The translations under genes and the position numbers were made by a program. The notes under the pieces are model-generated. The model did not search any database, was not told the DNA's origin, and saw nothing but the letters and a program-made list of their open reading frames with translations. A stretch of DNA of 33,541 nucleotides, from IMG/VR virus record IMGVR_UViG_2627853869_000007. One strand, 5' to 3'. Positions 1,194 through 33,254 of the stretch are shown here, in pieces (position 1 is the first letter of the stretch; every line of letters begins with the position of its first letter). Source of the stretch: a virus. Lineage: Duplodnaviria > Heunggongvirae > Uroviricota > Caudoviricetes.

Positions 1194-2084
1194 TCAGGCT
1201 GCCAGATCATCGTTTCCGATGGAAGCATAATAAGCTTTTTCTGCTTCTGCCGGAGGGATGTGGCCCAGCCTTTCCAGCAATCGTCGATTATTATACCAGT
1301 CCACCCACGTGAGTGTGGCCAGTTCCACTTCTGCACGGTTTTTCCAGCTCTTACGGTGTATTACCTCCGCTTTGTAAAGACCATTGATGCTCTCCGCCAT
1401 CGCGTTGTCATACGAGTCGCCTGTACTTCCTGTTGATGCCAGTAATCCGGCTTCCTTAAGCCGCTGTGTGTAGGCCAGCGATACATACTGAGAACCTTTA
1501 TCACTGTGATGGACCGTGCCGGACGGTCGACGGGCCCATAACGCCTGCTCCAGTGCATCCAGCACGAATGTCGTCTCCATGGACGATGAGACCCGCCACC
1601 CCACGATGTATCCGGCAAACACATCAATGATGAACGCCACATAGACGAAGCCCTGCCATGTGCTGACGTAAGTAAAATCAGCCACCCACAGCTGGTCAGG
1701 TCGTTCTGCCACGAACTGACGGTTTACGCGGTCGCCTGCGGCAACGGCTTTCCGGCTGATGGTCGTACGGACCTTTTTACCCCGGAGAACACCGGCAAGT
1801 CCCATAACCGCCATGAGACGTGCCACAGTGCATCTGGCCACTCTGATGCCTTCCCGTAACAACTGACGCCAGACTTTACGCACACCGTATACCTGATGAT
1901 TCCCATCGTATACGCGCAGTATCTCTTTCTTCAGCCAGTCATCGCGCTGCGCACGGGCACTGCGTTTATCAGGATGATGTCGCTGTTGCTGACAGTGGTA
2001 ATACGTTGACGGGGCAATATGTAGTTCACTGCATACCGGTCCGACCCCGTACAGCTTACGCAGCTTATCCAGCAGTGGCATCAC
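1194..2084 (-). CDS. IS629-like transposase OrfB (DDE integrase domain)
   Basis: 296-aa ORF with IS3-family DDE region ([11 protein letters not shown]...HHSDKGSQY...[13 protein letters not shown]). Confidence 0.85.
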
Positions 2085-2473: not shown

Positions 2474-2977
2474 TTACTGATAGTGTTTTATGTTCAGATA
2501 ATGCCCGATGACCTTGTCATGCAGCTCCACCGATTTTGAGAACGACAGTGACTTCCGTCCCAGCCTTGCCAGATGTTGTCTCAGATTCAGATTATGTCGC
2601 TCAATGCGCTGAGTGTAACGCTTGCTGATAACGTGCAGCTTTCCCTTCAGGCGTGATTCATACAGCGGCCAGCCATCCGTCATCCATACCACGACCTCAA
2701 AGGCCGACAGCAGGCTCAGAAGACGCTCCAGTGTGGCCAGAGTGCGTTCACCGAAGACGTGCGCCACAACCGTCCTCCGTATCCTGTCATACGCGTAAAA
2801 CAGCCAGCGCTGACGTGATTTAGCACCGACGTAGCCCCACTGTTCGTCCATTTCAGCGCAGACAATCACATCACTGCCCGGTTGTATGCGCGAGGTTACC
2901 GACTGCGGCCTGAGTTTTTTAAGTGACGTAAAACCGTGTTGAGGCCAACGCCCATAATGCGTGCACTGGCGCGACAT
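2474..2977 (-). CDS. insB: IS1 transposase InsB
   Basis: 167-aa ORF ...[52 protein letters not shown]..., the IS1 InsB sequence. Confidence 0.9.
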
Positions 2978-9230: not shown

Positions 9231-9454
9231 AAATAATGATCGATAAAGAGCAGAAGATTAGCCAGTCTACCCTGGACGCTCTTGAATCCGAGCTTTACCG
9301 CAATCTGCGCCCTCTGTATCCCAAAACGGTAATTCGTATCCGCAAAGGTAGCTCTAACGGTGTGGAACTTACTGGATTGCAACTGGACGAAGAAAGAAAA
9401 CAAGTGATGAAAATTATGCAGAAGGTGTGGGAAGACGACAGCTGGCTGCATTAA
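9231..9454 (+). CDS. DinI-like protein
   Basis: 74-aa ORF MRIEIMIDKEQKISQSTLDALESELYRNLRPLYPKTVIRIRKGSSNGVELTGL...VWEDDSWL, the DinI family pattern. Confidence 0.75.
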
Positions 9455-9589
9455 GAAACGTTGCTGGCGTCTGAACTAGCTTCTGGCGTCAGCAAGGTTG
9501 AACAACGAGCCCTTGCGAGGCGTTAGCTCTGTAGTGCATGTCTATGCCGCATGAGATCGCATGATCGTTTGAGGATCGTTTTTGCTAAG

Positions 9590-9614
9590 GCCCGCCAGAA
9601 CTGGCGGGCTTTTG
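9590..9614 (+). terminator. rho-independent terminator after the DinI-like gene
   Basis: GC-rich hairpin GCCCGCCAG/CTGGCGGGC followed by TTTTG. Confidence 0.6.
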
Positions 9615-9656
9615 CGTAGATCATGCAGGTGCATGAAAACCTCTACATAAAGCGGG

Positions 9657-9675
9657 CAGGCGTGGCGGGGATACG
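9657..9675. other. cos-like sequence (candidate cohesive-end site)
   Basis: GGCGTGGCGGGGATACGAT resembles the 19-nt P2/186 cohesive-end sequence as I recall it (GGCG(A/T)GGCGGGGAAAGCA-); first 13 nt identical to the 186 version; recalled, not searched. Confidence 0.35.
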
Positions 9676-9746
9676 ATTGCGCGCTAGGTATAAGTGTGTA
9701 AAATAATTCCAAAATAAATCATCACTAATGAAGTGAGAGGGTAATA

Positions 9747-11396
9747 ATGTTAGTCAAGAAAAATAAAAATTATAGTTTATATTTTTTAATTACAAATAAT
9801 CAACAGATATCTGATTCTGGTAATTATATAAAAATAGTCCCATCAAGAAGCGATTGGAATGATTTTGGATATTTGAGTAGAGTCGAAATATCTATTTTTA
9901 ATAAAAAAGAGTGTAAGGATATAATTTCACTGAATGGTTATATTGGTTTTTTGAATTCAGAGGAGGAACGAAATGGAAAAGCAGAACTGATAAGGCGAGT
10001 GAAGAAAAAGGAAGAATCTAATTTAAAGGATGAGGGGTTTAATGATTATTTTGTCATGCTTCAGGATATGAATAATTATCGAAGACTAGTAAGATTTTTT
10101 GGGGTGAATGAATCCAAATATATATTAAATTTCATTAATGATGTTGTTTCTAAGAAAAGTGACGCTAGTGCAGAGAATTTGAGGAAAAAAGCAATCTCTT
10201 CTGATATCTTTAATAAATCTTTCATTAGAGAGTCTGAGTCGTATTTTACTTTCAAAAATGCAGGAACAGTTCTTTCCGGTATTCAATATGAGGAGTTGGG
10301 TAATTTATCACAGCACATCAAGATTAGCTATTCGAATAAAGTTAATGAAGAAGATGTATCTTATGTTTTTAATTTTGATCACGAGCATGATTTACCAAAA
10401 AGAATTTCCATAATTATAGGCGAGAATGGTGTAGGAAAAAGCCAAACGCTTAGAGAAATCGCATTGGCTGCGATTAAAGGAAAGGATAATTTGGTGGCTG
10501 TAGTTGATTCTAACGGTGTGAGCATTGAAGAACGAATTCAAATTAGTAGGCTCATTGCTTTTTCTCCAACAAATGAAAGTAAGTGTTCATTTCCAACCGA
10601 TAAAAGAATAAAATCATTGATATGGTACAAAAGATTGACTTTAAATCGTGAATCAAAATCCAAATTAAACTTGAATGATTTAATAGTGCAACTAGCGAGG
10701 AGTAACGACGCTATCGGCTATAATCAAAGGTGGAATATATTTGTTGATGCACTGAGTGTTCTAAATAGTAACAACGATTTAGTAATCAAATGTGGCGGTG
10801 AAAATTCACCATTTGTTAAATTAAATGAGCTTAATTCTCGAGGCGAAGAATCTAGACTATCATTATATTCTGAAATTATTCTCTCTGGCGAGCCTTTGAG
10901 GCTTATTGAAAATAAATGTTACCCTTTGAGTAGTGGGGAAATATCGTTTATTAAGTTTTGTGTACAAGTCTGTTTGTATATTGAGAATGGGACTCTTCTA
11001 TTAATAGATGAGCCAGAAACACATCTCCATCCTTCATTTATTAATAAATTTATGGCATTGCTTGATAATTTATTAGAAAAGACAGGCTCTTCAGCTATCA
11101 TAGCAACGCATTCGGTTTATCTTGTTCGGGAGGTTTTTAAGGAGCAAGTGACAATACTCAGAAGACGAGATGATGGGGTAATTGTTAGCGAAAAACCGAG
11201 ATTGAGTACTTTTGGGGCGAATATAGGAAATATCTCATATTTTGTTTTCGGTGAGAGTGAACCAACTCAAATTTTAAATAAAGTAAAAAACAATATAATT
11301 GCAAAGAATATGTCTTGGGATGATGTTGAATCTAAATATAGCGAGGACTTATCACTTAATGTATTAACTGCGTTGAGAAATGAAATGGGCAATTGA
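9747..11396 (+). CDS. ABC-type (AAA_15/AAA_21-like) ATPase with an unassigned ~215-aa N-terminal domain; candidate defence ATPase (Septu PtuA-like architecture)
   Basis: 549-aa ORF; Walker A GENGVGKS (Lys231, nt 10437-10439), signature-like LSSGE (394-398), Walker B LLLIDEPETHLHP (D421-E422), H-loop IATHS (H455); AT-rich and Asn/Lys/Ile-rich unlike flanking phage genes. Confidence 0.7.
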   Translation: MLVKKNKNYSLYFLITNNQQISDSGNYIKIVPSRSDWNDFGYLSRVEISIFNKKECKDIISLNGYIGFLNSEEERNGKAELIRRVKKKEESNLKDEGFNDYFVMLQDMNNYRRLVRFFGVNESKYILNFINDVVSKKSDASAENLRKKAISSDIFNKSFIRESESYFTFKNAGTVLSGIQYEELGNLSQHIKISYSNKVNEEDVSYVFNFDHEHDLPKRISIIIGENGVGKSQTLREIALAAIKGKDNLVAVVDSNGVSIEERIQISRLIAFSPTNESKCSFPTDKRIKSLIWYKRLTLNRESKSKLNLNDLIVQLARSNDAIGYNQRWNIFVDALSVLNSNNDLVIKCGGENSPFVKLNELNSRGEESRLSLYSEIILSGEPLRLIENKCYPLSSGEISFIKFCVQVCLYIENGTLLLIDEPETHLHPSFINKFMALLDNLLEKTGSSAIIATHSVYLVREVFKEQVTILRRRDDGVIVSEKPRLSTFGANIGNISYFVFGESEPTQILNKVKNNIIAKNMSWDDVESKYSEDLSLNVLTALRNEMGN

Positions 11397-12261
11397 AATG
11401 AATAAATTAAAAAGACCTGTTTTTAAAGATTATTCTGCATTTAAAAAACTATCTGCAAATAAGAGATTAAAACATCATTCTGTTCTGAATGGACAGGATA
11501 CATTTATACTTAATGCATATAGATCGTACATAAAGAATAAAGGGTATCTTAATGTCAATTCTTGTGGCGTATTGAGTAACAATATTGCTGAAGCTTTGAG
11601 ATATTATTATAACAATCCCGCAAAGTGTTTATCTATAATTGATGATATAAGAGCAGCTAATTCTAACTCTCTATGTCCAATGTGTGGTTCAATGCATAGC
11701 GGGACTTTGGATCATGTTTTACCCAAGGAAAACTATCCAGAATTTTCTTTATTCACTAAGAATTTGGTTCCTGCTTGCAAATGTAATACTTTCAAAAGTA
11801 CTACTATAGCTAATTCTGCAGGCCATCGGATGCTGCATCCATATTTTGATAATATATTAAAACAAAGATTAATATGTGCTAATTTTTCTAAATTAGGGCG
11901 AACACCTACAATTGATGTAAAAATCATAATTGACCCAATGTCACCAGAATATAACAATGTTAAGTATCATCTTGATAATGTTGTTATCAAGAATAATATT
12001 AAGGGGTATTTGTCTGAACAATGGGAGTCGTTTTACTTATATCCTGAGCTTGTTATTAGAGGACTGAATAAGAGTCTTTCTACTTATAGCGATGTATATG
12101 AGTTGTTGACTCGCGAGTTGTTGCTGTTGGATGAAAAACATAAAGGTAAAAATAATTGGAATTCGGTTTTTGTAGCTGGGTTAATTCGACCTGATGTGAT
12201 TAGGTGGATACTCTGTGAATTACATTTAGGTAACAGAAGTCCAGACGGTCGTCTCATATGA
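11380..12261 (+). CDS. HNH-family nuclease (PtuB-like partner); overlaps the upstream ATPase by 17 nt
   Basis: 293-aa ORF with CPMC(99-102)...DH(111-112)...N128...CKC(133-135)...H149/H153 arrangement typical of zinc-finger HNH endonucleases; alternative start at 11398. Confidence 0.7.
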   Translation: MKWAIEMNKLKRPVFKDYSAFKKLSANKRLKHHSVLNGQDTFILNAYRSYIKNKGYLNVNSCGVLSNNIAEALRYYYNNPAKCLSIIDDIRAANSNSLCPMCGSMHSGTLDHVLPKENYPEFSLFTKNLVPACKCNTFKSTTIANSAGHRMLHPYFDNILKQRLICANFSKLGRTPTIDVKIIIDPMSPEYNNVKYHLDNVVIKNNIKGYLSEQWESFYLYPELVIRGLNKSLSTYSDVYELLTRELLLLDEKHKGKNNWNSVFVAGLIRPDVIRWILCELHLGNRSPDGRLI

Positions 12262-12271
12262 TTTTTTGCAT

Positions 12272-12297
12272 CTTCAGCGTGTATCTGCACGCTGAAG
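12272..12297. repeat. perfect 10-bp inverted repeat hairpin just downstream of the HNH gene
   Basis: CTTCAGCGTG-TATCTG-CACGCTGAAG; no U-tract on either strand, so function (terminator vs protein-binding site) is unclear. Confidence 0.5.
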
Positions 12298-12367
12298 AAA
12301 TTCATAAAAACTGCTGGCTATTAATAAATTTTTTAGCTGTGTTAAAGAACCTCATTTAGTGATTACG

Positions 12368-13402
12368 TTAAGTAGCTAGTTTATAACTATCAAATTTAAC
12401 AATGTTCTCACTTACCAATTTATTTATTTCCATCATTCTTTTTTGTAACGGTATTAACTCGTTACGTACAAACTCCAGGCTCGCCTTCTCCACATCCCCA
12501 AACCCCCCGACATTATTAGGCATAATCCCCATCATTTGCGGTGGCACACGATGCGCCGCCATCATGTCATCCCGGCTCACGTTCTTGATGTTCAGAAACT
12601 CATCCTTCGCCGCGACTTCTGACAACGGGATGATCTGAAGCCCGTCCTTTTTGCCGTTAGGCGAGTACATAAACAGATTGCGGAAGTTACCTGGTCCTTT
12701 GGCGCTTTTCATCGCATTGCGGAGGTTGTTCACATCCTCCTGGTTTTGCGCGGCATCGGTCATGTACATGATGAAGCCTGCATGACTGCCGTTAATGTAA
12801 TACTATCGGCGGAACAGCGTGGCGGACTCGTTGAGCAGGGCTGACGGAATGGCAGAAAGGTAACCTGGCAGGCCGTAGATCTCTTGGTTGATGTCCGGTT
12901 CCATCAGATGAAAGATGCTTCCTTTCGTGAACTGATACGGCTGCGTGGTCATGCCGTATTGCACAAACCAGTAGGTATCCAGGTCTAATCCGCGTCGGGT
13001 GTATTTTGCCAGAGCAGGCTCAAGAGCGATGACCTCTCCGAACCGGTTTGTGCGTTTCTCCAGGTAAGCGTTACCAAATACCAGATAATCCTGCACAAAA
13101 CGTGAAAAAGCCTGCTGGCTGAGCAGCGGGTGAGGGATGTAGGTACTGATCAGAATGTTGCATTTCACCGCAATTGGTGAACTGTGATGCACGGCGGCGC
13201 GGAAGGTGCGCGCCAGTCCGTCAAAACTCACTGGCGGCTCATACCAGCGATCTGTCTGTACGCATTCCACATAGTCCAGTAGTTCACGGCGGTCCAGAAC
13301 CGGAACGGGATCGCCGAAGCTGAATGCTTCGGCTGAAGTCTGGTTTTTATGCTGGGTCTGTTTCGTCGCCGCAGCGCGGTTCTTCTTACTCTTTCCCATC
13401 AA
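12368..13402 (-). pseudogene. Q: portal protein GpQ interrupted by a single in-frame amber (TAG) codon at 12803-12805
   Basis: ORFs 12803-13402 and 12368-12769 are in the same frame; read through the TAG they give a continuous 344-codon portal-like protein (...ATLFRR*YYINGSHAGFIMYMTDAAQ...). Confidence 0.8.
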
Positions 13403-20282: not shown

Positions 20283-20676
20283 AGCAGTGCCTTATGTCCG
20301 TAATAACCCGGACAAACTGCATCTGTTTGTGGATAACGGTTCGCTGGTTGCCTCCGGGGCTAGCTCCATGTCATGGGAGTACCGCTACACCCTGAACGTG
20401 GTGATTGAAGATTTCAGCGGCGACCAGAATCTGCTGATGGCCCCGGTTTTGCTGTGGCTGCGGGATAACCAGCCCGATGCGATCAATAACCCGGCGTTAC
20501 GGGAAAAGCTATTCACCTTTGAGGTGGATATTCTGCGCAACGATGTCTGTGATATCAGCCTTAACCTGCAACTGACGGAGCGTGTGCTGGTCAGCACTGA
20601 CGGCAGTGTGTCGAACGTTGAAGCGGTAGCGGAACCTGATGAACCTGAAGAAATGTGGACGGTGAAACGTGGCTGA
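20245..20676 (+). CDS. R: tail completion protein GpR
   Basis: ...LHLFVDNGSL...RYTLNVVIEDFSGDQNLLMAPVLLWLRDNQPD...; start probably GTG at 20245 after AGGAGCG. Confidence 0.8.
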   Translation: MNKPQSLRHALNKAVPYVRNNPDKLHLFVDNGSLVASGASSMSWEYRYTLNVVIEDFSGDQNLLMAPVLLWLRDNQPDAINNPALREKLFTFEVDILRNDVCDISLNLQLTERVLVSTDGSVSNVEAVAEPDEPEEMWTVKRG

Positions 20677-21112
20677 ATTGCAGAAGGTGGACGACTGGCT
20701 GAGTGCATTATTGGCGAATCTGGAGCCAGCCGCAAGAAGCCGCATGATGCGCCAGCTGGCGCAGGAACTGCGCCGGACACAGCAGCAGAACATCAGGATG
20801 CAGCGCAATCCTGATGGCAGCAGTTATGAGCCGCGCAGGGTAACAGCACGCAGCAAAAAGGGGTGCATCAAACGTCAGATGTTTACAAAGCTGCGCACCA
20901 CAAAATACCTGAAAACTGCAGCCAGCGCCGATTCTGCCAGCGTACAGTTTGAAGGTAGGGTGCAGCGCATTGCCCGTATTCACCATTACGGCTTGAGTGA
21001 TCGCGTCAGTCGAAAAGGTATTTATACCATCTATGCGAAAAGGCAGTTATTAGGTTTTAATGTCCAATCTATTGAGTTAATTGAAAGAATGTTCATTAAA
21101 AACCTAACTTGA
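20669..21112 (+). CDS. S: tail completion protein GpS (appears complete; 3' end AT-rich)
   Basis: 147-aa ORF ...MMRQLAQELRRTQQQNIRMQRNPDGS...IARIHHYGL...YAKRQLLGF...; P2 S-like through the C-terminus. Confidence 0.75.
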   Translation: MAELQKVDDWLSALLANLEPAARSRMMRQLAQELRRTQQQNIRMQRNPDGSSYEPRRVTARSKKGCIKRQMFTKLRTTKYLKTAASADSASVQFEGRVQRIARIHHYGLSDRVSRKGIYTIYAKRQLLGFNVQSIELIERMFIKNLT

Positions 21113-21190
21113 TTTTTATTTGTTTTCAATTGAGTGGTAATGCTGCCAACTTACTGATTTAGTGTATGATGGTGATTTTAAGGTGCTTGC

Positions 21191-21466
21191 GTGGCTTCCA
21201 TTTCCATCAGATGTCCTTCCTGCTCCGCTACTGAAGGCGTGGTGCGTAACGGCAAAAGCACTGCCGGACATCAGCGCTATCTCTGCTCTCATTGCCGTAA
21301 AACATGGCAACTACAGTTCACTTACACCGCCTCTCAGCCCGGTACGCACCAGAAAATCATTGATATGGCCATGAATGGCGTCGGATGTCGCGCCAGTGCA
21401 CGCATTATGGGCGTTGGCCTCAACACGGTTTTACGTCACTTAAAAAACTCAGGCCGCAGTCGGTAA
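21191..21466 (+). CDS. insA: IS1 InsA
   Basis: Identical 91-aa translation to copy A. Confidence 0.9.
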
Positions 21467-21888
21467 CCTCGCGCATACAACCGGGCAGTGATGTGATTGT
21501 CTGCGCTGAAATGGACGAACAGTGGGGCTACGTCGGTGCTAAATCACGTCAGCGCTGGCTGTTTTACGCGTATGACAGGATACGGAGGACGGTTGTGGCG
21601 CACGTCTTCGGTGAACGCACTCTGGCCACACTGGAGCGTCTTCTGAGCCTGCTGTCGGCCTTTGAGGTCGTGGTATGGATGACGGATGGCTGGCCGCTGT
21701 ATGAATCACGCCTGAAGGGAAAGCTGCACGTTATCAGCAAGCGTTACACTCAGCGCATTGAGCGACATAATCTGAATCTGAGACAACATCTGGCAAGGCT
21801 GGGACGGAAGTCACTGTCGTTCTCAAAATCGGTGGAGCTGCATGACAAGGTCATCGGGCATTATCTGAACATAAAACACTATCAGTAA
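21385..21888 (+). CDS. insB: IS1 InsB
   Basis: Identical 167-aa translation to copy A. Confidence 0.9.
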
Positions 21889-21903
21889 GTTGGAGTCATT
21901 ACC

Positions 21904-22002
21904 CACCCGACTTAACGCCGTGTTGGATTACATTGACGCGGTGGCGGCAACAGATACCAGCACCGCGCCGGATGTCATCTGGCCTGAACTGCCGGAGGCG
22001 TA
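21904..22002 (+). pseudogene. tail fiber assembly gene, 3' remnant (5' part removed by IS1)
   Basis: Frame from 21904 reads ...NAVLDYIDAVAATDTSTAPDVIWPELPEA*, a typical tail-fiber-assembly C-terminus; converges on and overlaps the 3' end of the opposite-strand tfa gene. Confidence 0.6.
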
Positions 22003-22412
22003 GGCCATTCAATATCTGGAGCACTGGAGGTATCAATCAGTTCCAGTGCGTCCAGATAATCCAGCCACAAATTATATTGCGCCAGTTCCTCACCTTTCAG
22101 ACGACCAATAGCGGCTTTACCGGGCCATTGTTTACTGTTCATGTATTCGTTGGCCTGATTAAGCAATAATTGCCTTTCTGATTCTGCCTGTTGAATAAGT
22201 TCTTCATATGATGGTGGAGGTATTAGTGCCCATGTGGGTAATCCATTTTTTCCTGCAACACGAATTTTGTCATCTGGGGGCGTATTGATTGCAAATTCAT
22301 TATAAACATCATCACTGACAGCCAGAGCATCATCTGGCCATGAATTTGCATTAATGTAATCATCCTTAAGCGCAGGATTCACAAAAATGTTTAAAGATGG
22401 ACTATAAAACAT
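21975..22412 (-). CDS. tail fiber assembly protein (Tfa/U-type chaperone) of the invertible segment
   Basis: 145-aa ORF ...NSKQWPGKAAIGRLKGEELAQYNLWLDYLDALELIDTSSAPDIEWP... Confidence 0.8.
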   Translation of the reverse strand: MFYSPSLNIFVNPALKDDYINANSWPDDALAVSDDVYNEFAINTPPDDKIRVAGKNGLPTWALIPPPSYEELIQQAESERQLLLNQANEYMNSKQWPGKAAIGRLKGEELAQYNLWLDYLDALELIDTSSAPDIEWPTPPAVQAR

Positions 22413-22413
22413 A

Positions 22414-22803
22414 TTAAACCCCTATAGCGATATAACGACCTAATACAGCATTTGCAGCAGTCGCTATGCTTGAAAAACCGCGGAACTGATTTGATGTAAT
22501 TGCAGAAGCCGACAGGATTCCTGCGCCTGAAGGTGTATGCCCCACATGACTAACTATCATCCCATAACATGCTGACGGAAAGGCAAAAGGAAAATCATTA
22601 AGATATCCTGCATCTTCACCACCAGACCCACCAAATCTCGCCTGCCCCCACTGAATAATCAGTGTTCTCCGGGAACCTGAAATAATTAACGGAATCGTTA
22701 CATACCCATTCAGGCCAATGACACCCGATGCAGTGCCAGCCAGAGATAATTCTCCCAAACCAACGTTTAAGAAAATGCAGAGATAATGGCTAACTGGCAT
22801 CAT
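22414..22803 (-). CDS. tail fibre C-terminal variable segment (alternative cassette; constant part absent)
   Basis: 129-aa ORF immediately upstream of tfa on the same strand; its 5' end contains the recombination site, so the N-terminal residues are read-in sequence. Confidence 0.6.
   Translation of the reverse strand: MMPVSHYLCIFLNVGLGELSLAGTASGVIGLNGYVTIPLIISGSRRTLIIQWGQARFGGSGGEDAGYLNDFPFAFPSACYGMIVSHVGHTPSGAGILSASAITSNQFRGFSSIATAANAVLGRYIAIGV
22750..22775. promoter_or_regulatory. serine-invertase crossover site (gix/hix/pix-like)
   Basis: TTCTCCCAAACCAACGTTTAAGAAAA fits the 26-bp pattern TTCTC..AAACC...GTTT..GA.AA of Hin/Gin/Pin inversion sites; lies inside the tail-fibre segment about 55 bp before the invertase start. 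Confidence 0.5.
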
Positions 22804-22829
22804 CCCCGGTTTTTATTCAGGGGATTGAT

Positions 22830-23397
22830 CATGCTTATTGGCTATGTACGCGTGTCAACAAATGACCAGAACACCGATTTGCAACGTAATGCACTGAACT
22901 GCGCGGGATGTGAGCGGATTTTTGAGGATAAAATCAGTGGCACTAAGCCCGACAGACCGGGGCTTAAAAAACTGCTCAGGACACTATCGGCAGGAGACAC
23001 GCTGGTTGTCTGGAAGCTGGACAGACTGGGACGCAGTATGCGGCATCTTGTTACGCTGATAGAAGAGTTGCGCCAGCGTGGTGTGAATTTCCGAAGCCTG
23101 ACTGACAGTATTGATACCAGTACCCCAATGGGCCGTTTCTTTTTTCACGTCATGGGGGCTCTGGCTGAAATGGAACGTGAACTGATAGTTGAACGTACCA
23201 GAGCAGGGCTGGCTGCAGCTCGTGCCAAAGGCAGAGTAGGTGGACGCCGTCCTAAGTTGACCACCGAACAGTGGGCACAGATTGGACGTTTACTCGAGGC
23301 CGGAGAATCAAGACAGCGTATTGCACTGATTTTTGATGTGGGCGTTTCTACCATTTATAGAAAATTTCCGGCGAATGAGAGCAATGAATCGCCCTGA
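22830..23397 (+). CDS. serine site-specific DNA invertase (Hin/Gin/Pin/Cin family)
   Basis: MLIGYVRVSTNDQNTDLQRNAL...TLVVWKLDRLGRSMRHL... with catalytic Ser in VRVSTNDQ and C-terminal HTH. Confidence 0.9.
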
Positions 23398-23445
23398 GTC
23401 AGTATTATTTTGATTTTTCCTGTAAGCGGACAAATACCGTCATTT

Positions 23446-23463
23446 TGTGTGAATAACGACACA
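23446..23463. promoter_or_regulatory. Ogr-type late promoter element TGT-N12-ACA upstream of FI
   Basis: TGTGTGAATAACGACACA, about 75-95 bp upstream of the FI start codon. Confidence 0.5.
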
Positions 23464-23539
23464 ACTGCGCTTAGCTGTTTGTCAGGCACAATCACTTCAA
23501 CATAGGGCGAAGCCTAATCCAATCAGGAGGTTCGCCACT

Positions 23540-24712
23540 ATGGCTCAGGATTACCACCACGGGGTGCGCGTTGTTGAAGTCAACGAAGGCACCCGATCCA
23601 TTACCACGGTGAGCACCGCCATCGTGGGTATGGTCTGCACGGGCGATGATGCCGATGCAAAAATGTTTCCTCTTAATAAACCTGTGCTGATCACTGATGT
23701 GCTGACCGCCAGCGGTAAAGCGGGTGAGTCTGGCACGCTGGCCCGTTCGCTGGATGCCATCGCTGACCAGGCAAAACCCGTGACCGTTGTTGTGCGTGTG
23801 CCGCAGGGTGAAACGGAAGAAGAAACCACAACCAATATCATTGGCGCAGTGACCGCCGAGGGTAAAAAAACAGGTATGAAAGCCCTGTTATCTGCCCAGT
23901 CACAGCTCGGCGTTAAACCGCGCATTCTCGGCGTGCCAGGTCACGACACGAAGGCGGTAGCTACTGAGTTGCTGAGCGTGGCGCAAAGCCTGCGTGGATT
24001 TGCTTACCTGTCAGCGTATGGTTGCAAGACGGTGCAGGAAGCAATCACTTACCGTGAAAACTTCAGTCAGCGTGAAGGAATGCTGATCTGGCCCGACTTT
24101 ACTGGCTGGGACACGGTGCTGAATGCCGAAGCAACGGCTTATGCCACCGCCCGTGCGCTCGGTCTGCGCGCTAAAATTGATGAGCAGACCGGATGGCACA
24201 AAAGCCTGTCCAACGTGGGCGTGAACGGTGTCACCGGAATTTCTGCTGATGTGTTCTGGGATCTGCAGGACCCGGCAACCGATGCAGGTCTGCTTAACCA
24301 GAACGATATCACCACGCTTATCCGCAAAGACGGTTTCCGCTTCTGGGGTTCCCGCTGTCTGAGCGATGATCCGCTCTTTGCCTTCGAAAACTACACCCGC
24401 ACGGCGCAGGTGCTGATGGACACGATGGCAGAAGCGCACATGTGGGCGGTGGACAAACCGCTGAACCCGTCGCTGGCCCGCGACATTATCGAAGGTATCC
24501 GCGCCAAAATGCGTAGCCTGGTCAGTCAGGGCTATCTCATTGGTGGTGATTGCTGGCTGGACGAGTCGGTGAACGATAAAGACACGCTGAAAGCCGGGAA
24601 ACTCACCATCGATTACGACTACACGCCAGTGCCGCCACTTGAAAACCTGATGCTGCGTCAGCGCATCACCGATCAGTACCTGGTGAATTTCTCCAGCCAG
24701 GTCAGCGCGTAA
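23540..24712 (+). CDS. FI: tail sheath protein FI
   Basis: 390-aa [38 protein letters not shown]... P2 FI-like. Confidence 0.9.
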
Positions 24713-24721
24713 GGGGACAAC

Positions 24722-25237
24722 ATGGCTTTACCACGCAAATTAAAACACCTGAACCTGTTTAACGACGGGAACAACTGGCAGGGGATCGTTGAGTCGCTGA
24801 CGCTGCCGAAATTCACCCGCAAATATGAGAAGTATCGCGGCGGCGGTATGCCCGGAGCGGTGGATGTGGATCTGGGACTGGATGACAGTGCACTGGATAC
24901 AGAATTTTCCATTGGTGGTACTGAACTGCTGCTGTTTAAGCAGATGGGCAAAGCCACGGTGGATGGCATCCAGCTGCGCTTTACCGGCTCTATTCAGCGT
25001 GATGATACCGGGGAAGTGCAGGCCGTGGAGCTTGTGGTGCGTGGACGTCACAAAGAAGTAGATTCCGGCGAGTGGAAGACGGGCGAAAGCAACACTACCA
25101 AAGTGACCAGTACCAACAGCTACGCGAAGCTGACCATCAATGGTGAGGTGCTCTATGAAGTGGACCTGATCAACATGGTGGAAATTGTGGACGGTGTGGA
25201 CCTGATGGAAGCGCACCGCAACGCCCTCGGCCTCTGA
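24722..25237 (+). CDS. FII: tail tube protein FII
   Basis: 171-aa ORF MALPRKLKHLNLFNDGNNWQG... P2 FII-like. Confidence 0.9.
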   Translation: MALPRKLKHLNLFNDGNNWQGIVESLTLPKFTRKYEKYRGGGMPGAVDVDLGLDDSALDTEFSIGGTELLLFKQMGKATVDGIQLRFTGSIQRDDTGEVQAVELVVRGRHKEVDSGEWKTGESNTTKVTSTNSYAKLTINGEVLYEVDLINMVEIVDGVDLMEAHRNALGL

Positions 25238-25291
25238 TGTATCTGAACGGCGCGGAATGCCGCGCCAGAACCTAATTTACAGGACAACAAA

Positions 25292-25594
25292 ATGAGCGAT
25301 AAGCAGACTGAAAAGACCATTCAACTGGATACTCCCATCATGCGCGGTAAAACAGAAATTACCGAAATTGTGTTGCGTAAACCGCAGTCCGGTGCGCTGC
25401 GCGGCACACGCCTGCAGGCCATTATGGATATGGATGTGAACGCGATGATGACCGTGATCCCCCGCATCTCCAGTCCGGCACTGACTGCACAGGAAATTGC
25501 AGAGATGGACCCGGCAGATCTCACTGCCATGTCGGTTGAGGTTGTCACTTTTTTGTTGAAGAAGTCGGTGCTTGCCGGTTTACCGACAGCCTGA
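25292..25594 (+). CDS. E: tail assembly chaperone GpE
   Basis: 100-aa ORF preceding the tape-measure gene; contains the slippery heptamer T-TTT-TTG. Confidence 0.8.
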   Translation: MSDKQTEKTIQLDTPIMRGKTEITEIVLRKPQSGALRGTRLQAIMDMDVNAMMTVIPRISSPALTAQEIAEMDPADLTAMSVEVVTFLLKKSVLAGLPTA

Positions 25595-25728
25595 CGGTTG
25601 ACGATCTGGTGGCTGATATCGCCACCATCTTTCACTGGCCGCCATCCGTTACTGACGTTATGCCGCTGACCGAAGTGCTGGAATGGCGGGATAAAGCGAT
25701 TCAGAGAAGCGGGGCCAGCCATGAGTGA
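25292..25728 (+). CDS. GpE+E' fusion produced by programmed -1 frameshift at T-TTT-TTG (25549-25555)
   Basis: From 25555 the -1 frame is open for 57 codons to the TGA at 25726-25728, which overlaps the T start codon. Confidence 0.6.
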
Positions 25729-28700
25729 CAATAACCTGCGTCTGCAGGTGATTCTTAATGCGGTTGACAAACTCACCCGCCCATTTCGATCCGCGCAGGC
25801 CAGTTCAAGAGAACTGGCTGCTGCTGTCAAAAAATCCCGCGATGCAATAAAGCAGCTTGATCAGGCCGGGAGCAGTCTGGACAGCTTCCGAAAGCTGCAG
25901 GCAGAAAATCAGAAATTAGGCGACAGGCTGAACTATGCCCGCCAGCGTGCAAATTTGCTCAGTCAGGAACTGGGAGCGATGGGGCCGCCTTCGCAACGTC
26001 AGGTTGTTGCTCTGGGCCGTCAACGGCTGGCTGTTCAGCGCCTAGAAGAACGCCAGAAAAAGCTGCAGCAGCAGACGGCGCTTGTGCGTGCAGAACTTTA
26101 TCGTGCTGGTATTTCAGCTAATGATGGCGCCAGTGCGACGGCCCGCATTACCCGTGAAACGATGCGTTATAACAGGCAGCTTTCTGAGCAGGAAGCGAGG
26201 TTACGACGTGTCGGGGAGCAACAGCGAAAAATGCACGCCGCCCGGGGGGCTTACGCCAGGCGTCTTGAGGTAAGGGATCGTATTGCAGGTGCCGGAGCCA
26301 CCACCACGGCTGCAGGGCTGGCAATGGGCGCACCAGTGATGGCGGCAGTAAAAAGCTATACCAGCATGGAAGATGCCATGAAAGGTGTGGCAAAGCAGGT
26401 CAATGGTCTGCGTGACGATAATGGCAACCGCACTGCGCGTTTTTACGAAATGCAGGGTGCCATCAAGGCTGCCAGCGAACAGTTGCCGATGGAAAACGGT
26501 GCTGTGGACTTCGCCGCACTGGTTGAAGGTGGTGCGCGCATGAACGTCGCAAACCCTGACGACAGCTGGGAAGACCAGAAACGTGACCTGCTGGCCTTCG
26601 CCAGCACGGCGGCAAAGGCGGCAACAGCCTTTGAACTGCCAGCGGATGAACTGTCAGAAAGTCTGGGGAAAATCGCCCAGCTCTACAAAATCCCTACCCG
26701 CAATATTGAGCAGCTCGGTGATGCGCTGAACTATCTGGATGATAACGCCATGTCGAAAGGGGCGGACATCATTGATGTCATGCAACGCCTGGGCGGTGTG
26801 GCTGACCGTCTGGATTATCGTAAAGCGGCGGCGCTGGGTTCCACCTTCCTGACACTCGGCGCTGCGCCTGAGGTTGCAGCCAGTGCAGCAAACGCGATGG
26901 TGCGTGAATTGTCCATTGCCACCATGCAAAGCAAGAGTTTCTTTGAAGGGATGAATCTGCTGAAACTCAATCCAGAAGTGATTGAAAAGCAGATGACGAA
27001 GGATGCGATGGGAACTATCCAGCGGGTGCTGGAGAAGGTGAATGCGCTGCCACAGGATAAGCGCCTGTCTGCCATGACCATGTTGTTTGGTAAAGAGTTT
27101 GGCGATGACGCAGCGAAACTGGCAAACAACCTGCCGGAACTTCAGCGCCAGTTAAAACTGACTGCGGGCAATGATGCGCTCGGTTCCATGCAGAAAGAAT
27201 CCGACATCAACAAGGATTCACTTTCTGCTCAGTGGTTGCTGGTCAAAACCGGAGCACAGAACACCTTCAGCAGCCTGGGGGAAACGCTGCGCCAGCCGCT
27301 GATGGATATTCTGTACACGGTGAAAAGCGTCACGGGGGCGTTGCGTCGCTGGGTGGAAGCTAACCCGGAACTGACGGGCACTCTGATGAAAGTAGCCGCT
27401 GTGGTAGCTGCCGTTACCGTGGGCCTCGGCACCTTAGCGGTGGCGCTGGCTGCAGTGCTGGGGCCGCTGGCAGTCATCCGTCTGGGATTCTCTGTGCTGG
27501 GTATCAAAACGTTACCTTCCGTTACGGCAACAGTAACCCGAACCAGCAACGCGTTGTCCTGGCTGGCTGGCGCACCACTGGCACTGCTGCGACGCGGGCT
27601 TGCTTCATCGGGCAACGCTGCAGGTTTACTTACTGCGCCGTTGTCGTCTTTGCGCCGCACGGCATCACTGACGGGAAATGTCCTGAAAACTGTAGCAGGT
27701 GCGCCGGTTGCACTTTTGCGGTCTGGATTATCCGGTTTACGTGCGGTTGCTGTGATGTTTATGAATCCACTGGCGGTACTACGCGGCGGACTGGCTGCCA
27801 CAGGCACGGTGCTGCGTATGCTCGCATCCGGTCCACTGGCGATGCTGCGCGTTGCCCTGTATGCCGTCTCTGGTCTGTTAGGTGCTCTGCTCAGTCTGAT
27901 AGGTCTTGTGGTTACTGCACTGGCGGGTGTGGCGCTGGTTGTCTGGAAATACTGGCAGCCCATCACCGCATTTCTCGGTGGCGTGGTGGAAGGATTCAAA
28001 GCGGCGGCAGGTCCTGTCAGTGCCGCGTTCGAACCGCTTAAGCCTGTGTTCCAGTGGATTGGCGACAAAGTACAGGCGCTGTGGGGCTGGTTTACTGATC
28101 TGCTGACGCCCGTTAAGTCGACCTCTGCCGAACTGCAGAGTGCAGCGGCAATGGGGCGACGATTCGGGGAGGCTCTGGCGGAAGGGCTGAATATGGTCAT
28201 GCATCCGCTGGACTCCCTGAAATCCGGCGTTTCCTGGTTGCTGGAGAAACTTGGCATTGTCAGTAAAGAGGCCGCAAAGGCGAAACTGCCGGAAAGCGTG
28301 ACGCGTCAGCAACCTGCGACGGTGAATGCAGACGGTAAAGTGATGATGCCATCGGGTGGTTTTCCGTCATGGGGATATGGCTTTGCGGGGATGTATGACA
28401 GCGGCGGGTATATCCCGCGCGGGCAGTTTGGCATCGTCGGTGAAAACGGGCCGGAAATTGTTAACGGCCCGGCAAATGTGACCAGCCGGAGAAATACAGC
28501 TGCACTGGCTGCCGTTGTTGCCGGAATGATGGGTGTTGCTGCTACGCCAGCAGAGCTTCCACCGTTGCACCCTTTGGCACTTCCCGCGAAAGGCGGTGAA
28601 GCGATGGTGAGTCGTGCAGCCACTGTGCCGCCCGTTCAACGGATTGAGGCACCGATGCAGATCATCATTCAAACGCAGCCAGGACAAAGTGCGCAGGATA

Positions 28701-30921: not shown

Positions 30922-32607
30922 TTATCCTAATCCTGGCCATACCATGACGATGATTGTCCCTGCCAGCGTCAGCAGGACGTTGGCGATTGCGTAGGTGCCC
31001 GCATAGCCCAGCGCAGGGATGTTACTGTGAGCTGTATCACTGATGATCTCCATTGCCGGCGCGCAGGTGCGTGCGCCCATCATTGCGCCGAACAACAGTG
31101 CGCGGTTCATTCGCAATACATAAGCACCGAACAAGAAACAGATAACCACGGGCACAAGACTGACAATTAATCCGGCAATCAACATCTGACCGCCAATCGC
31201 GCCCAGGCCGTTATTAATACCGCTACCGGCGCTCAGACCAACGCCTGCCATAAACACCATCAAGCCGAACTCTTTCACCATGCTTAATGCACCTTGCGGA
31301 ATGTAACCGAAGGTCGGGTGGTTAGCACGCATAAAGCCCAGCATAATTCCGGCGAATAACAACCCGGCAGCGTTCCCCATGCCGAAACTGAATGTGCTGA
31401 ACTGGAAGGTGATCATCCCGATCATCAGCCCAATAACAAAGAAGGCGCAAAATGCCAGCAGGTCAGTGACCTGGCTGTGAATCGAGATAAAGCCGATGCG
31501 ATCGGCGATGGTTTTTACGCGACGGGCATCACCGCTGACTTGTAAAACGTCACCTTTGTTAAGCACGACGTTGTCATCTATCGGCATCTCAATCTGGCTA
31601 CGAATGACGCGGTTAAGGAAGCAACCGTGATCGGTCAACTTCAGTTGTGCGAGACGTTTACCTACAGCGTTATGGTTTTTAACGACCACTTCTTCAGTGA
31701 CGATACGCATGTCGAGAAGGTCACGATCGAAAACTTCTTTACCGTTACGGAAGCTGGGATCGAGTCGGGCATGGGCGTCGGGATAGCCTACCAACGCTAT
31801 TTCATCGCCCATTTGTAGCACGGCATCACCGTCTGGATTTGCCAGAATCCCGTTACGTCGAATACGTTCAATGTAGCAGCCGGTTTGTCGATAAATACCC
31901 AGTTCACGCAGATTTTTGCCGTCGGTCCAGGCCACCAGCTCCGGGCCGACGCGATAGGCGCGGATCACCGGTAAATAAACCTTACGGTTGGCATCAGTGT
32001 CCAGGCCACGTTCGCGGGCGATTTGCTGGGCGCTGGTCTGTAAGTCCTGATGCTGCAATTTCGGCAAGTAACGCGCACCAACAATCAAACTCACCAGACC
32101 GATTAAATAGGTTAAGGCATACCCGAGGCTCAGATTATCCAGTGCCAGTGAGAGCTGCCTGCTTTCCATGCCGGAATGACGCAGTGTATCGCCAGCACCG
32201 ACCAGAACCGGTGTCGACGTCATAGAGCCTGCTAACATACCGGCCGTCAGGCCAATATCCCAGCCAAACAGCTTACCTAACCCTAAGGCGATCACCAGCG
32301 CACTGCCAACCATCACCAGTGCTAACATTAGGTAATTTTTCCCATCGCGAAAAAAAATGGAAAAAAAGTTCGGTCCGGCTTCGACCCCGACGCAGAAAAT
32401 AAACAGCATAAAGCCAAGATTAAGCGCATCGGTGTTAATGCTGAAATGTTGTTGGCCTAATAACAGCGATACGACTAAAACGCCAATGGAATTACCCAGT
32501 TGGATCGAACCAAGTCGTAACTTTCCGAGACATAGCCCAAGCGCGAGGACCACAAATAATAACAGAATGTAATTCCCATTTAACAATTCGGCGACGTTTA
32601 TATTCAC
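30922..32607 (-). CDS. ybjL: YbjL putative transporter (host)
   Basis: 561-aa [58 protein letters not shown]..., the E. coli YbjL sequence. Confidence 0.9.
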
Positions 32608-32876: not shown

Positions 32877-33254
32877 GTGAAACATAAACAACGTTGGGCG
32901 GGGGCAATCTGCTGTTTTGTCCTCTTCATTGTGGTGTGCCTTTTTCTGGCGACGCACATGAAAGGCGCTTTTCGGGCTGCCGGGCATCCTGAAATCGGCT
33001 TGCTGTTTTTCATTCTTCCTGGAGCAGTTGCCAGTTTCTTTTCACAGCGTAGAGAAGTCCTGAAACCTCTATTTGGCGCAATGCTGGCGGCACCCTGTTC
33101 AATGCTCATTATGCGGCTGTTTTTTTCACCGACGCGCTCATTCTGGCAAGAGCTGGCATGGTTACTAAGCGCGGTGTTCTGGTGTGCGCTGGGGGCACTG
33201 TGTTTCTTATTTATCAGTAGTTTGTTTAAACCACAGCACAGAAAAAATCAGTAA
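32877..33254 (+). CDS. ybjM: YbjM inner membrane protein (host)
   Basis: 125-aa hydrophobic ORF between ybjL and grxA as in the E. coli chromosome. Confidence 0.8.
   Translation: MKHKQRWAGAICCFVLFIVVCLFLATHMKGAFRAAGHPEIGLLFFILPGAVASFFSQRREVLKPLFGAMLAAPCSMLIMRLFFSPTRSFWQELAWLLSAVFWCALGALCFLFISSLFKPQHRKNQ

Follow-up and report, generated by a model that had tools for sequence, protein, structure and literature searches.

A two-gene ABC ATPase and HNH nuclease cassette of the PDC-M01 family, homologous to lambda ea59/ea31 and related to Septu, in a P2-like prophage

The virus record IMGVR_UViG_2627853869_000007 (33,541 nt; the window, by which we mean this whole stretch of DNA) is a P2/186-type prophage with genes for a CI repressor, CII and the gpA replication endonuclease, a DinI-like gene, cos, and portal, terminase, capsid and tail genes; 15 kb of it are 99.8% identical to a prophage of Escherichia coli UPEC-245U (NZ_CP049845) that is inserted near rcdA/ybjL. 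Our subject is a cassette of two genes in this prophage, which encode an ABC-type ATPase (gene 1) and an HNH nuclease (gene 2) (Table 1). A previous examination of the letters alone (the sequence-only reading) had located the cassette between a cos-like sequence and the portal gene and had judged it, by eye, to be compositionally foreign and AT-rich. Both calls hold: the GC content is 32.0% in the cassette versus 54.5% in the remaining prophage, and N, K, I, Y and F together account for 35% of the residues in each of the two cassette proteins versus 21–25% in gpA and TerL. The cos-like element is a 19-mer that we take to resemble the cos sequence of P2/186. The 17-nt overlap formerly proposed between the two genes arose because the longest open reading frame (ORF) was taken for gene 2, and has to be abandoned: among the matches listed, the start corresponds to the second ATG (11398) in ~115 of 120 gene 2 homologues (most read MNK...), and most are 287–288 amino acids long, and the PGAP annotation has the same start. 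Gene 2 most likely begins there, 1 nt past the TGA of gene 1 (11394–11396), so that H112 of the 293-amino acid ORF is H106 in the 287-amino acid numbering used here. A cluster representative 99.7% identical to its product is named from Shigella dysenteriae.

PADLOC assigned both proteins to the same system. The product of gene 1 matched the PDC-M01A model PDLC04242 (E 3.2e-55; residues 27–539 against profile positions 31–551 of 566), followed by the PtuA1 models of Septu (the best being PDLC00282, E 1e-31), and that of gene 2 matched the PDC-M01B model PDLC04270 (E 1.2e-33; residues 8–270). The A and B genes are adjacent, in this order and on the same strand, and we see no architectural difference between the PDC-M01 of PADLOC and the cassette. 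In the literature, PDC-M01 is described as a PADLOC candidate that is unpublished and whose calls often coincide with those of Septu (PMC11811056). In PHROGs, both proteins belong to families of unknown function (8066 and 18937), and the NCBIfam matches, which were to PtuA, TIGR02646 and a restriction-associated ATPase, all stayed below threshold.

The cassette had also been catalogued as a locus, since it corresponds to system 155 from the P2 gpA–gpQ hotspot, labelled "NLR-like" (Rousset et al., 2022, Table S5B). Table S5A of the same work includes WP_112048222, the accession of the ATPase from the 99.8% identical E. coli prophage; the listed ATPase and that of the window show a single difference, N versus Y at residue 125, over the ~400 residues compared. 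In P2-like phages, the gpA–gpQ region was identified as a hotspot for systems directed against phages, with many validated defence genes (Rousset et al., 2022), and the pair sits in this hotspot, in agreement with its earlier description as candidate defence cargo of the variable region of P2-like phages. The suggestion that it might be a divergent Septu or an undescribed system survives in its first half, because the pair is Septu-related; it is nevertheless already described, as PDC-M01, as PHROGs 8066 and 18937, as system 155 and, in phage lambda, as ea59/ea31.

The comparison with lambda involved both proteins over their full length and in the same gene order. A tblastn alignment of the ATPase with Ea59 (525 amino acids) covered residues 21–549 with 24% identity (E 3e-13), Ea31 (296 amino acids) is 37% identical to the product of gene 2 in the HNH core, and hhalign of the HNH profile with Ea31 gave a probability of 98% over 179 columns, including the C-terminal domain. 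The match between the N-terminal domain of the ATPase and the N-terminus of Ea59 was marginal (hhalign 18%, E 1e-3), with a WND(F/Y) motif lining up. In turn, lambda Ea59 (NC_001416, ea59–ea31 at 24509–26973) matched over its full length both the PDC-M01A model PDLC04235 (E 4e-201) and the PtuA1 model PDLC00282 (E 5e-184), the latter being the Ea59-type model that also recognized gene 1 best among those of PtuA1, and Ea31 matched PDC-M01B (E 6e-113). Judged from these homologies, PDC-M01, the PADLOC Septu model PDLC00282 and lambda ea59/ea31 are a single superfamily, and the presence of one family under two PADLOC names accounts for the loci that users have seen called twice, as Septu and as PDC-M01. 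The lambda pair and the cassette share the gene order, similar product sizes (525 and 296 versus 549 and 287 amino acids) and their condition of non-essential phage cargo. They differ in that the lambda genes overlap by 4 nt whereas those of the cassette are 1 nt apart, in the sub-family models that they match (PDLC04235/04256 for lambda versus PDLC04242/04270 for the cassette), and in their location, which is the b region beside attP/int in lambda and the vicinity of cos and the portal gene here. A search of 50,697 phage records retrieved ATPase matches in 19, of which 17 are lambda-type (one under a Campylobacter phage name) and two are uncultured faecal phage contigs.

The association of both genes is strict. 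Taking one genome per species, we examined 79 loci from at least eight phyla (Proteobacteria, Myxococcota, Verrucomicrobia, Bacteroidota, Actinobacteria, Acidobacteria, Elusimicrobia and a CPR lineage), and an HNH homologue lies directly downstream of the ATPase gene, on the same strand, in all the 78 that extend far enough to judge. The contexts examined, those of two relatives, are mobile: the Salmonella pair lies in an integrase-flanked island with HipA, a ScoMcrA-type HNH protein, TraI and ArdC, and the Pseudoxanthomonas pair at the end of an integrative and conjugative element with a type IV secretion system, beside a RES toxin.

The ATPase has the complete set of ABC motifs, at the places where the sequence-only reading had found them, and the key residues of these motifs are invariant in 37 homologues. 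An insertion of ~160 residues separates Walker A from the signature motif. Only the Pfam models AAA_21 (60.8 bits versus a cut-off of 27) and AAA_15 matched gene 1, within residues 221–460; Walker A lies some 225 residues into the protein, as noted earlier, and residues 1–190 are without a Pfam or NCBIfam model. An AlphaFold model built from the family alignment reached a predicted local distance difference test score (pLDDT) of 79 and a predicted template modelling score (pTM) of 0.76; in a fold search with it, the structural neighbours listed were ATPases of the ABC, SMC or Rad50 type and, further down, a few recombinases of the RecA type, but no STAND protein. When the PDB was searched by sequence, both with the single protein and with profiles of the family, the matches of the ATPase were generic ABC proteins only (UvrA, EF3, AriA). 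Downstream of the ABC core, the near-invariant motif PxLxTFGAxxGxISYFVFGE (residues 484–503) coincides with the least confident stretch of the model (pLDDT 31–50; below 50 for residues 487–505). This coincidence of near-invariance with the lowest confidence points to a segment that takes up its fold only when it meets a partner, and the motif is a likely candidate for an interface with protein or nucleic acid.

The N-terminal domain of the ATPase was modelled mostly with pLDDT 80–93, dipping to 65–73 at residues 31–40, 91–100 and 171–178, and contains the invariant motifs WNDFG, ML, YR, SFxR and KN. It had been considered novel and unassigned. It does lack a match in Pfam and NCBIfam (residues 1–190) and, as a profile, in the PDB, where searches with this domain and with the HNH profile retrieved nothing meaningful (S100-A9, E 0.015; a designed scaffold, E 0.29); in both fold searches no match to it was seen, the queries being full chains for which matches to the ABC core dominate. 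The domain is not peculiar to this locus, as its profile retrieved 270 clusters (50% identity) from 1.84 billion representative proteins and is thus found family-wide. Among the 150 best matches listed, it is almost always N-terminal in ATPases of ~530–580 amino acids, or in fragments; it is a hallmark found across, and confined to, the PDC-M01/Ea59 family, and not a shuffled module. A few relatives (P0304 and P0320, of ~705 amino acids, and P0305, of 812) carry an extra DUF4062 or AbiJ_NTD3 domain ahead of it. Both of these domains are associated with conflict systems. We propose that the N-terminal domain could be a sensor or regulatory domain.

In the nuclease, which had no match in Pfam, the zinc-finger HNH arrangement inferred from the letters is corroborated by nine residues that are invariant in 41 homologues (C93, C96, D105, H106, N122, C127, C129, N130 and H147). 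Its AlphaFold model, also from the family alignment, is of high confidence (pLDDT 88, pTM 0.87). The C-terminal part, previously taken for an extension of ~140 amino acids, instead aligns with the body of PtuB (structural match over 187 of 234 residues).

Comparison of the predicted models showed that PtuA and PtuB, from Septu and from retrons, are the best structural matches for the two proteins. As in Septu and retron I-A, a gene for an ABC ATPase, here with Walker A, signature, Walker B and H-loop, is directly followed by one for an HNH protein. The similarity is more limited in sequence: the PtuA structure 8ee4 was matched by the ATPase only at E 2e-3, the HNH profile aligned with a canonical PtuB of E. 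coli with a probability of 93.9% (hhalign; 33% identity over 79 core columns), and this PtuB in turn matched PDC-M01B models at ~1e-7. Defence by Septu EcB88 depends on the motifs of its ATPase as well as on those of its HNH nuclease (PMC13096335). Its Walker A lysine is K43, versus K231 in the cassette, and its HNH histidine is H75, versus H106. Unlike Septu, the cassette ATPase has ~180 extra conserved residues at its N-terminus and the nuclease ~85; unlike retron I-A, the cassette lacks a retron reverse transcriptase or non-coding RNA. Because the catalytic residues are displaced with respect to EcB88, and the curated PtuA and PtuB models are not reached (see below), we treat the PDC-M01/Ea59-Ea31 family as a deep sister branch of the PtuA/PtuB lineage and not as Septu in the strict sense. 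The pairing of an ABC ATPase sensor with a nuclease effector also recalls OLD, Gabija and PARIS, with weak matches to AriA and OLD, as well as the old and tin cargo of P2, which shares the hotspot and the phage family. However, the cassette effector is a separate HNH protein and not a Toprim domain or subunit, neither protein matched Toprim in PADLOC or Pfam, which led us to reject membership in OLD, Gabija or PARIS, and the cassette, unlike old, tin and other cargo of the hotspot, sits on the portal side of cos.

The prophage itself is decaying. An amber codon, AAG in the UPEC-245U prophage, splits the portal gene into ORFs of 199 and 133 amino acids, and must be a genuine mutation that inactivates the gene or else an error of sequencing. 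In addition, the baseplate and tail-fibre genes expected at positions 21113–23539, between a gpS-like gene (20669–21112) and the tail sheath gene (23540–24712), are missing and replaced by an insertion sequence (IS), an invertase gene and tail-fibre remnants (Table 1). On account of both changes the prophage is defective and can no longer produce particles. Both genes of the cassette are nevertheless intact, as selection on the host would predict, and this counts against a function confined to lytic growth; a gene pair that benefits the host would be expected to be kept intact while the prophage decays.

Together, these results lead us to interpret the cassette, with moderate confidence, as an Ea59/Ea31 (PDC-M01) module of two genes that would function as a Septu-type, ATP-regulated HNH nuclease in defence or in competition between phages. 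This interpretation is supported by the PADLOC and Ea59 matches, the pairing and the invariant residues, the hotspot and mobile contexts, the fusions to AbiJ_NTD3 and DUF4062, and the intactness of the cassette in a decayed prophage. By analogy with Septu, which is characterized by a hexameric PtuA with bound PtuB and by a nuclease under the restraint of ATP, and with the PtuAB of retron I-A, the ATPase would oligomerize through its ABC heads and the insertion domain and would dock the HNH protein, whose nuclease activity would remain silent while ATP is bound and cycled. A cue from infection, which might be a phage protein, an unusual form of DNA or falling ATP, and which would probably be read by the family-specific N-terminal domain, would then release or activate the nuclease, and this would cut DNA or a tRNA and keep the incoming phage from replicating, perhaps at the expense of the cell that it infects. 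Several observations weigh against this interpretation. The literature searches returned no phage-challenge data for the PDC-M01/Ea59-Ea31 family, and the table of tested systems of Rousset et al. (2022; Table S2) contains neither the cassette sequences nor the term "HNH", so that system 155 was apparently not assayed. The curated models were not reached either by the ATPase (PtuA, NF041760; 41.1 bits versus a cut-off of 500) or by the nuclease (PtuB, TIGR02646; 13 bits versus 52). A scan of positions 9400–12420 yielded 14 promoter-like sites versus 13.3 expected in shuffled sequence, with no promoter identified upstream of the cassette. Finally, the lambda homologues are named as "early" genes and are non-essential, so that the family may serve the lytic cycle of the phage and not the lysogen.

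This last point leads to the main rival explanation, that the nuclease serves the phage and not the host, acting in lytic growth or upon induction, as may hold for lambda ea59/ea31. It might, for instance, break down the DNA of the host or of a competitor, or prepare DNA to be replicated or packaged. The homology to non-essential lambda genes that lie next to int agrees with it, as would the lambda endonuclease of 1982 discussed below, and the PHROGs entries indicate that the family recurs in phage genomes. Even so, we consider it unlikely, because most members found in the genome scan and in context look-ups reside in bacterial chromosomes, islands and integrative and conjugative elements and not in recognizable phages, some relatives are fused to Abi-type domains, the gpA–gpQ hotspot is rich in validated defence genes, and the cassette remains intact in a prophage that is unable to make particles.

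Less probable still is that the pair works as a toxin-antitoxin or addiction module that stabilizes the mobile element, or as a Type IV-like restriction of modified DNA. AAA_21 is described as a putative AbiEii toxin domain, PADLOC also reported AbiLi and MADS matches, HipA and RES toxins are found among the neighbours in other genomes, and there is a partial match to TIGR04435, a restriction-system-associated AAA ATPase (E 1e-20). The relationship to PtuA/PtuB is stronger than any of these matches, however, and the module is strictly of two genes, with neither a methyltransferase nor an antitoxin-like small gene conserved beside it; assignment to TIGR04435 itself was rejected because the match is confined to residues 392–506 and attains 73.6 bits versus a cut-off of 300. 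The reading that underlies the label in Table S5B of Rousset et al. (2022), namely a STAND (NLR-like) NTPase whose effector is a nuclease, is very improbable, since the weak NACHT and nSTAND matches (E 0.007–0.015) are sub-threshold and limited to the surroundings of the P-loop, no NACHT or NB-ARC NOD module was found above threshold, and both the fold, with no STAND protein among the structural neighbours listed, and the ABC motifs, including the signature, contradict it; the label should be replaced by ABC ATPase, PtuA-like.

Returning to a Septu-type nuclease in defence or competition, we tentatively extend it to the family, although we hold this broader proposal to be rather doubtful. Ea59/Ea31 modules might constitute a distinct and widespread form of Septu-related immunity, in which the N-terminal domain would sense infection, possibly through single-stranded or aberrant DNA, and license an ATP-driven HNH nuclease, and which lambda- and P2-type phages would carry as a weapon against competitors. 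An endonuclease of lambda reported in 1982 is presumably the product of ea59/ea31. That enzyme is mentioned in PMC5241400 as a lambda-specified endonuclease dependent on single-stranded DNA that was purified by Benchimol et al. (1982); a sensor for such DNA would be in keeping with it. If the proposal were true, lambda ea59 and ea31 would gain a function and, if the family defends against phages, immunity of the Septu type would be extended to a new sensor module. In the search for the trigger and for the interface between subunits, the N-terminal domain and the motif at residues 484–503 offer good starting points. The locus itself is a clear natural instance of an ATPase-nuclease cassette carried by a phage. 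It is one more member of a catalogued family, and a reasonable experimental target because of the lambda link and the uncharacterised sensor-like domain.

Table 1. Features of the cassette and of the surrounding prophage (positions in the window).
Feature	Position	Strand	Basis or remark
Gene 1, PDC-M01A / Ea59-type ABC ATPase (PtuA-like)	9747..11396	+	549 amino acids
Family-specific N-terminal domain, residues 1–178	9747..10280	+	beta-sheet then helical bundle; model and invariant columns
ABC ATPase core	10419..11114	+	motifs, invariant columns
Walker A, GENGVGKS	10419–10442	+	residues 225–232
Signature, LSSGE	10926–10940	+	read from sequence
Walker B/D-loop, LLLIDEPETHLHP	10995–11033	+	read from sequence
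H-loop, ATHS	11103–11114	+	read from sequence
Near-invariant motif, residues 484–503	11196..11255	+	invariant columns
Gene 2, PDC-M01B / Ea31-type HNH nuclease (PtuB-like)	11398..12261	+	287 amino acids; longest ORF from 11380, 293 amino acids
HNH / zinc-finger core (CxxC, DH, N, CxCN, H)	11674..11838	+	invariant residues
Variable AT-rich cargo island, ~2.7 kb	9698..12410	.	~32% GC; composition and points where prophage similarity ends and restarts
Terminator-like hairpin (8-bp GC stem, 4-nt loop, TTTT)	9590..9613	+	closes the upstream DinI-like gene, before cos; read from sequence
cos-like 19-mer, GGCGTGGCGGGGATACGAT	9659..9677	.	read from sequence
Perfect hairpin of 12 bp, between the converging genes of nuclease and portal	12271..12298	.	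RNAfold, -19.6 kcal/mol
Portal gene	12368..13402	-	outside the system, bounds the hotspot on the right; amber codon at 12803–12805, TAG here versus AAG in the UPEC-245U prophage
IS3-family transposase ORFs	203–1042, 1194–2084		integrase end of the prophage
Second IS1 copy	2474–2977		integrase end of the prophage
IS1 transposase	21385–21888		in the replaced baseplate/tail-fibre block
Tail-fibre assembly gene and fibre C-terminal remnant	21975–22803	-	in the replaced block
Cin/Gin-type invertase	22786–23397		in the replaced block
ybjL-like host gene (Asp-Al_Ex/TrkA_C)	30922–32607	-	right prophage flank
ybjM host gene	32877–33254		right prophage flank

The limits of the island that holds the cassette were deduced from comparison with ~1200 other P2-type prophages of E. 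coli. Similarity to them ends at position 9697, near which the shared P2-type backbone breaks off, and restarts at ~12408–12489, within the last portal codons; likewise, window positions 9600–9697 have matches in 1188 complete E. coli genomes out of 5426, against only three for the cassette. The last 15–40 codons of the portal gene (within 12368–12489) are AT-rich and are not common to most other P2-type prophages; therefore, the recombination junction of the hotspot lies inside the portal coding sequence, with the cargo bringing its own portal C-terminus. Of the two hairpins that flank the cassette, the upstream one has only four T, fewer than the promoter and terminator scan requires, and the downstream one could be a terminator or mark where a transcript ends, but has no U-tract on either strand.

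The integrase of the intact relative, the UPEC-245U prophage, is matched by positions 1–194 of the window only, next to the transposase genes that Table 1 lists for this end. The IS load of the window looks Shigella-like. The host genes of the right flank are those of the same chromosomal neighbourhood as in the intact E. coli relative.

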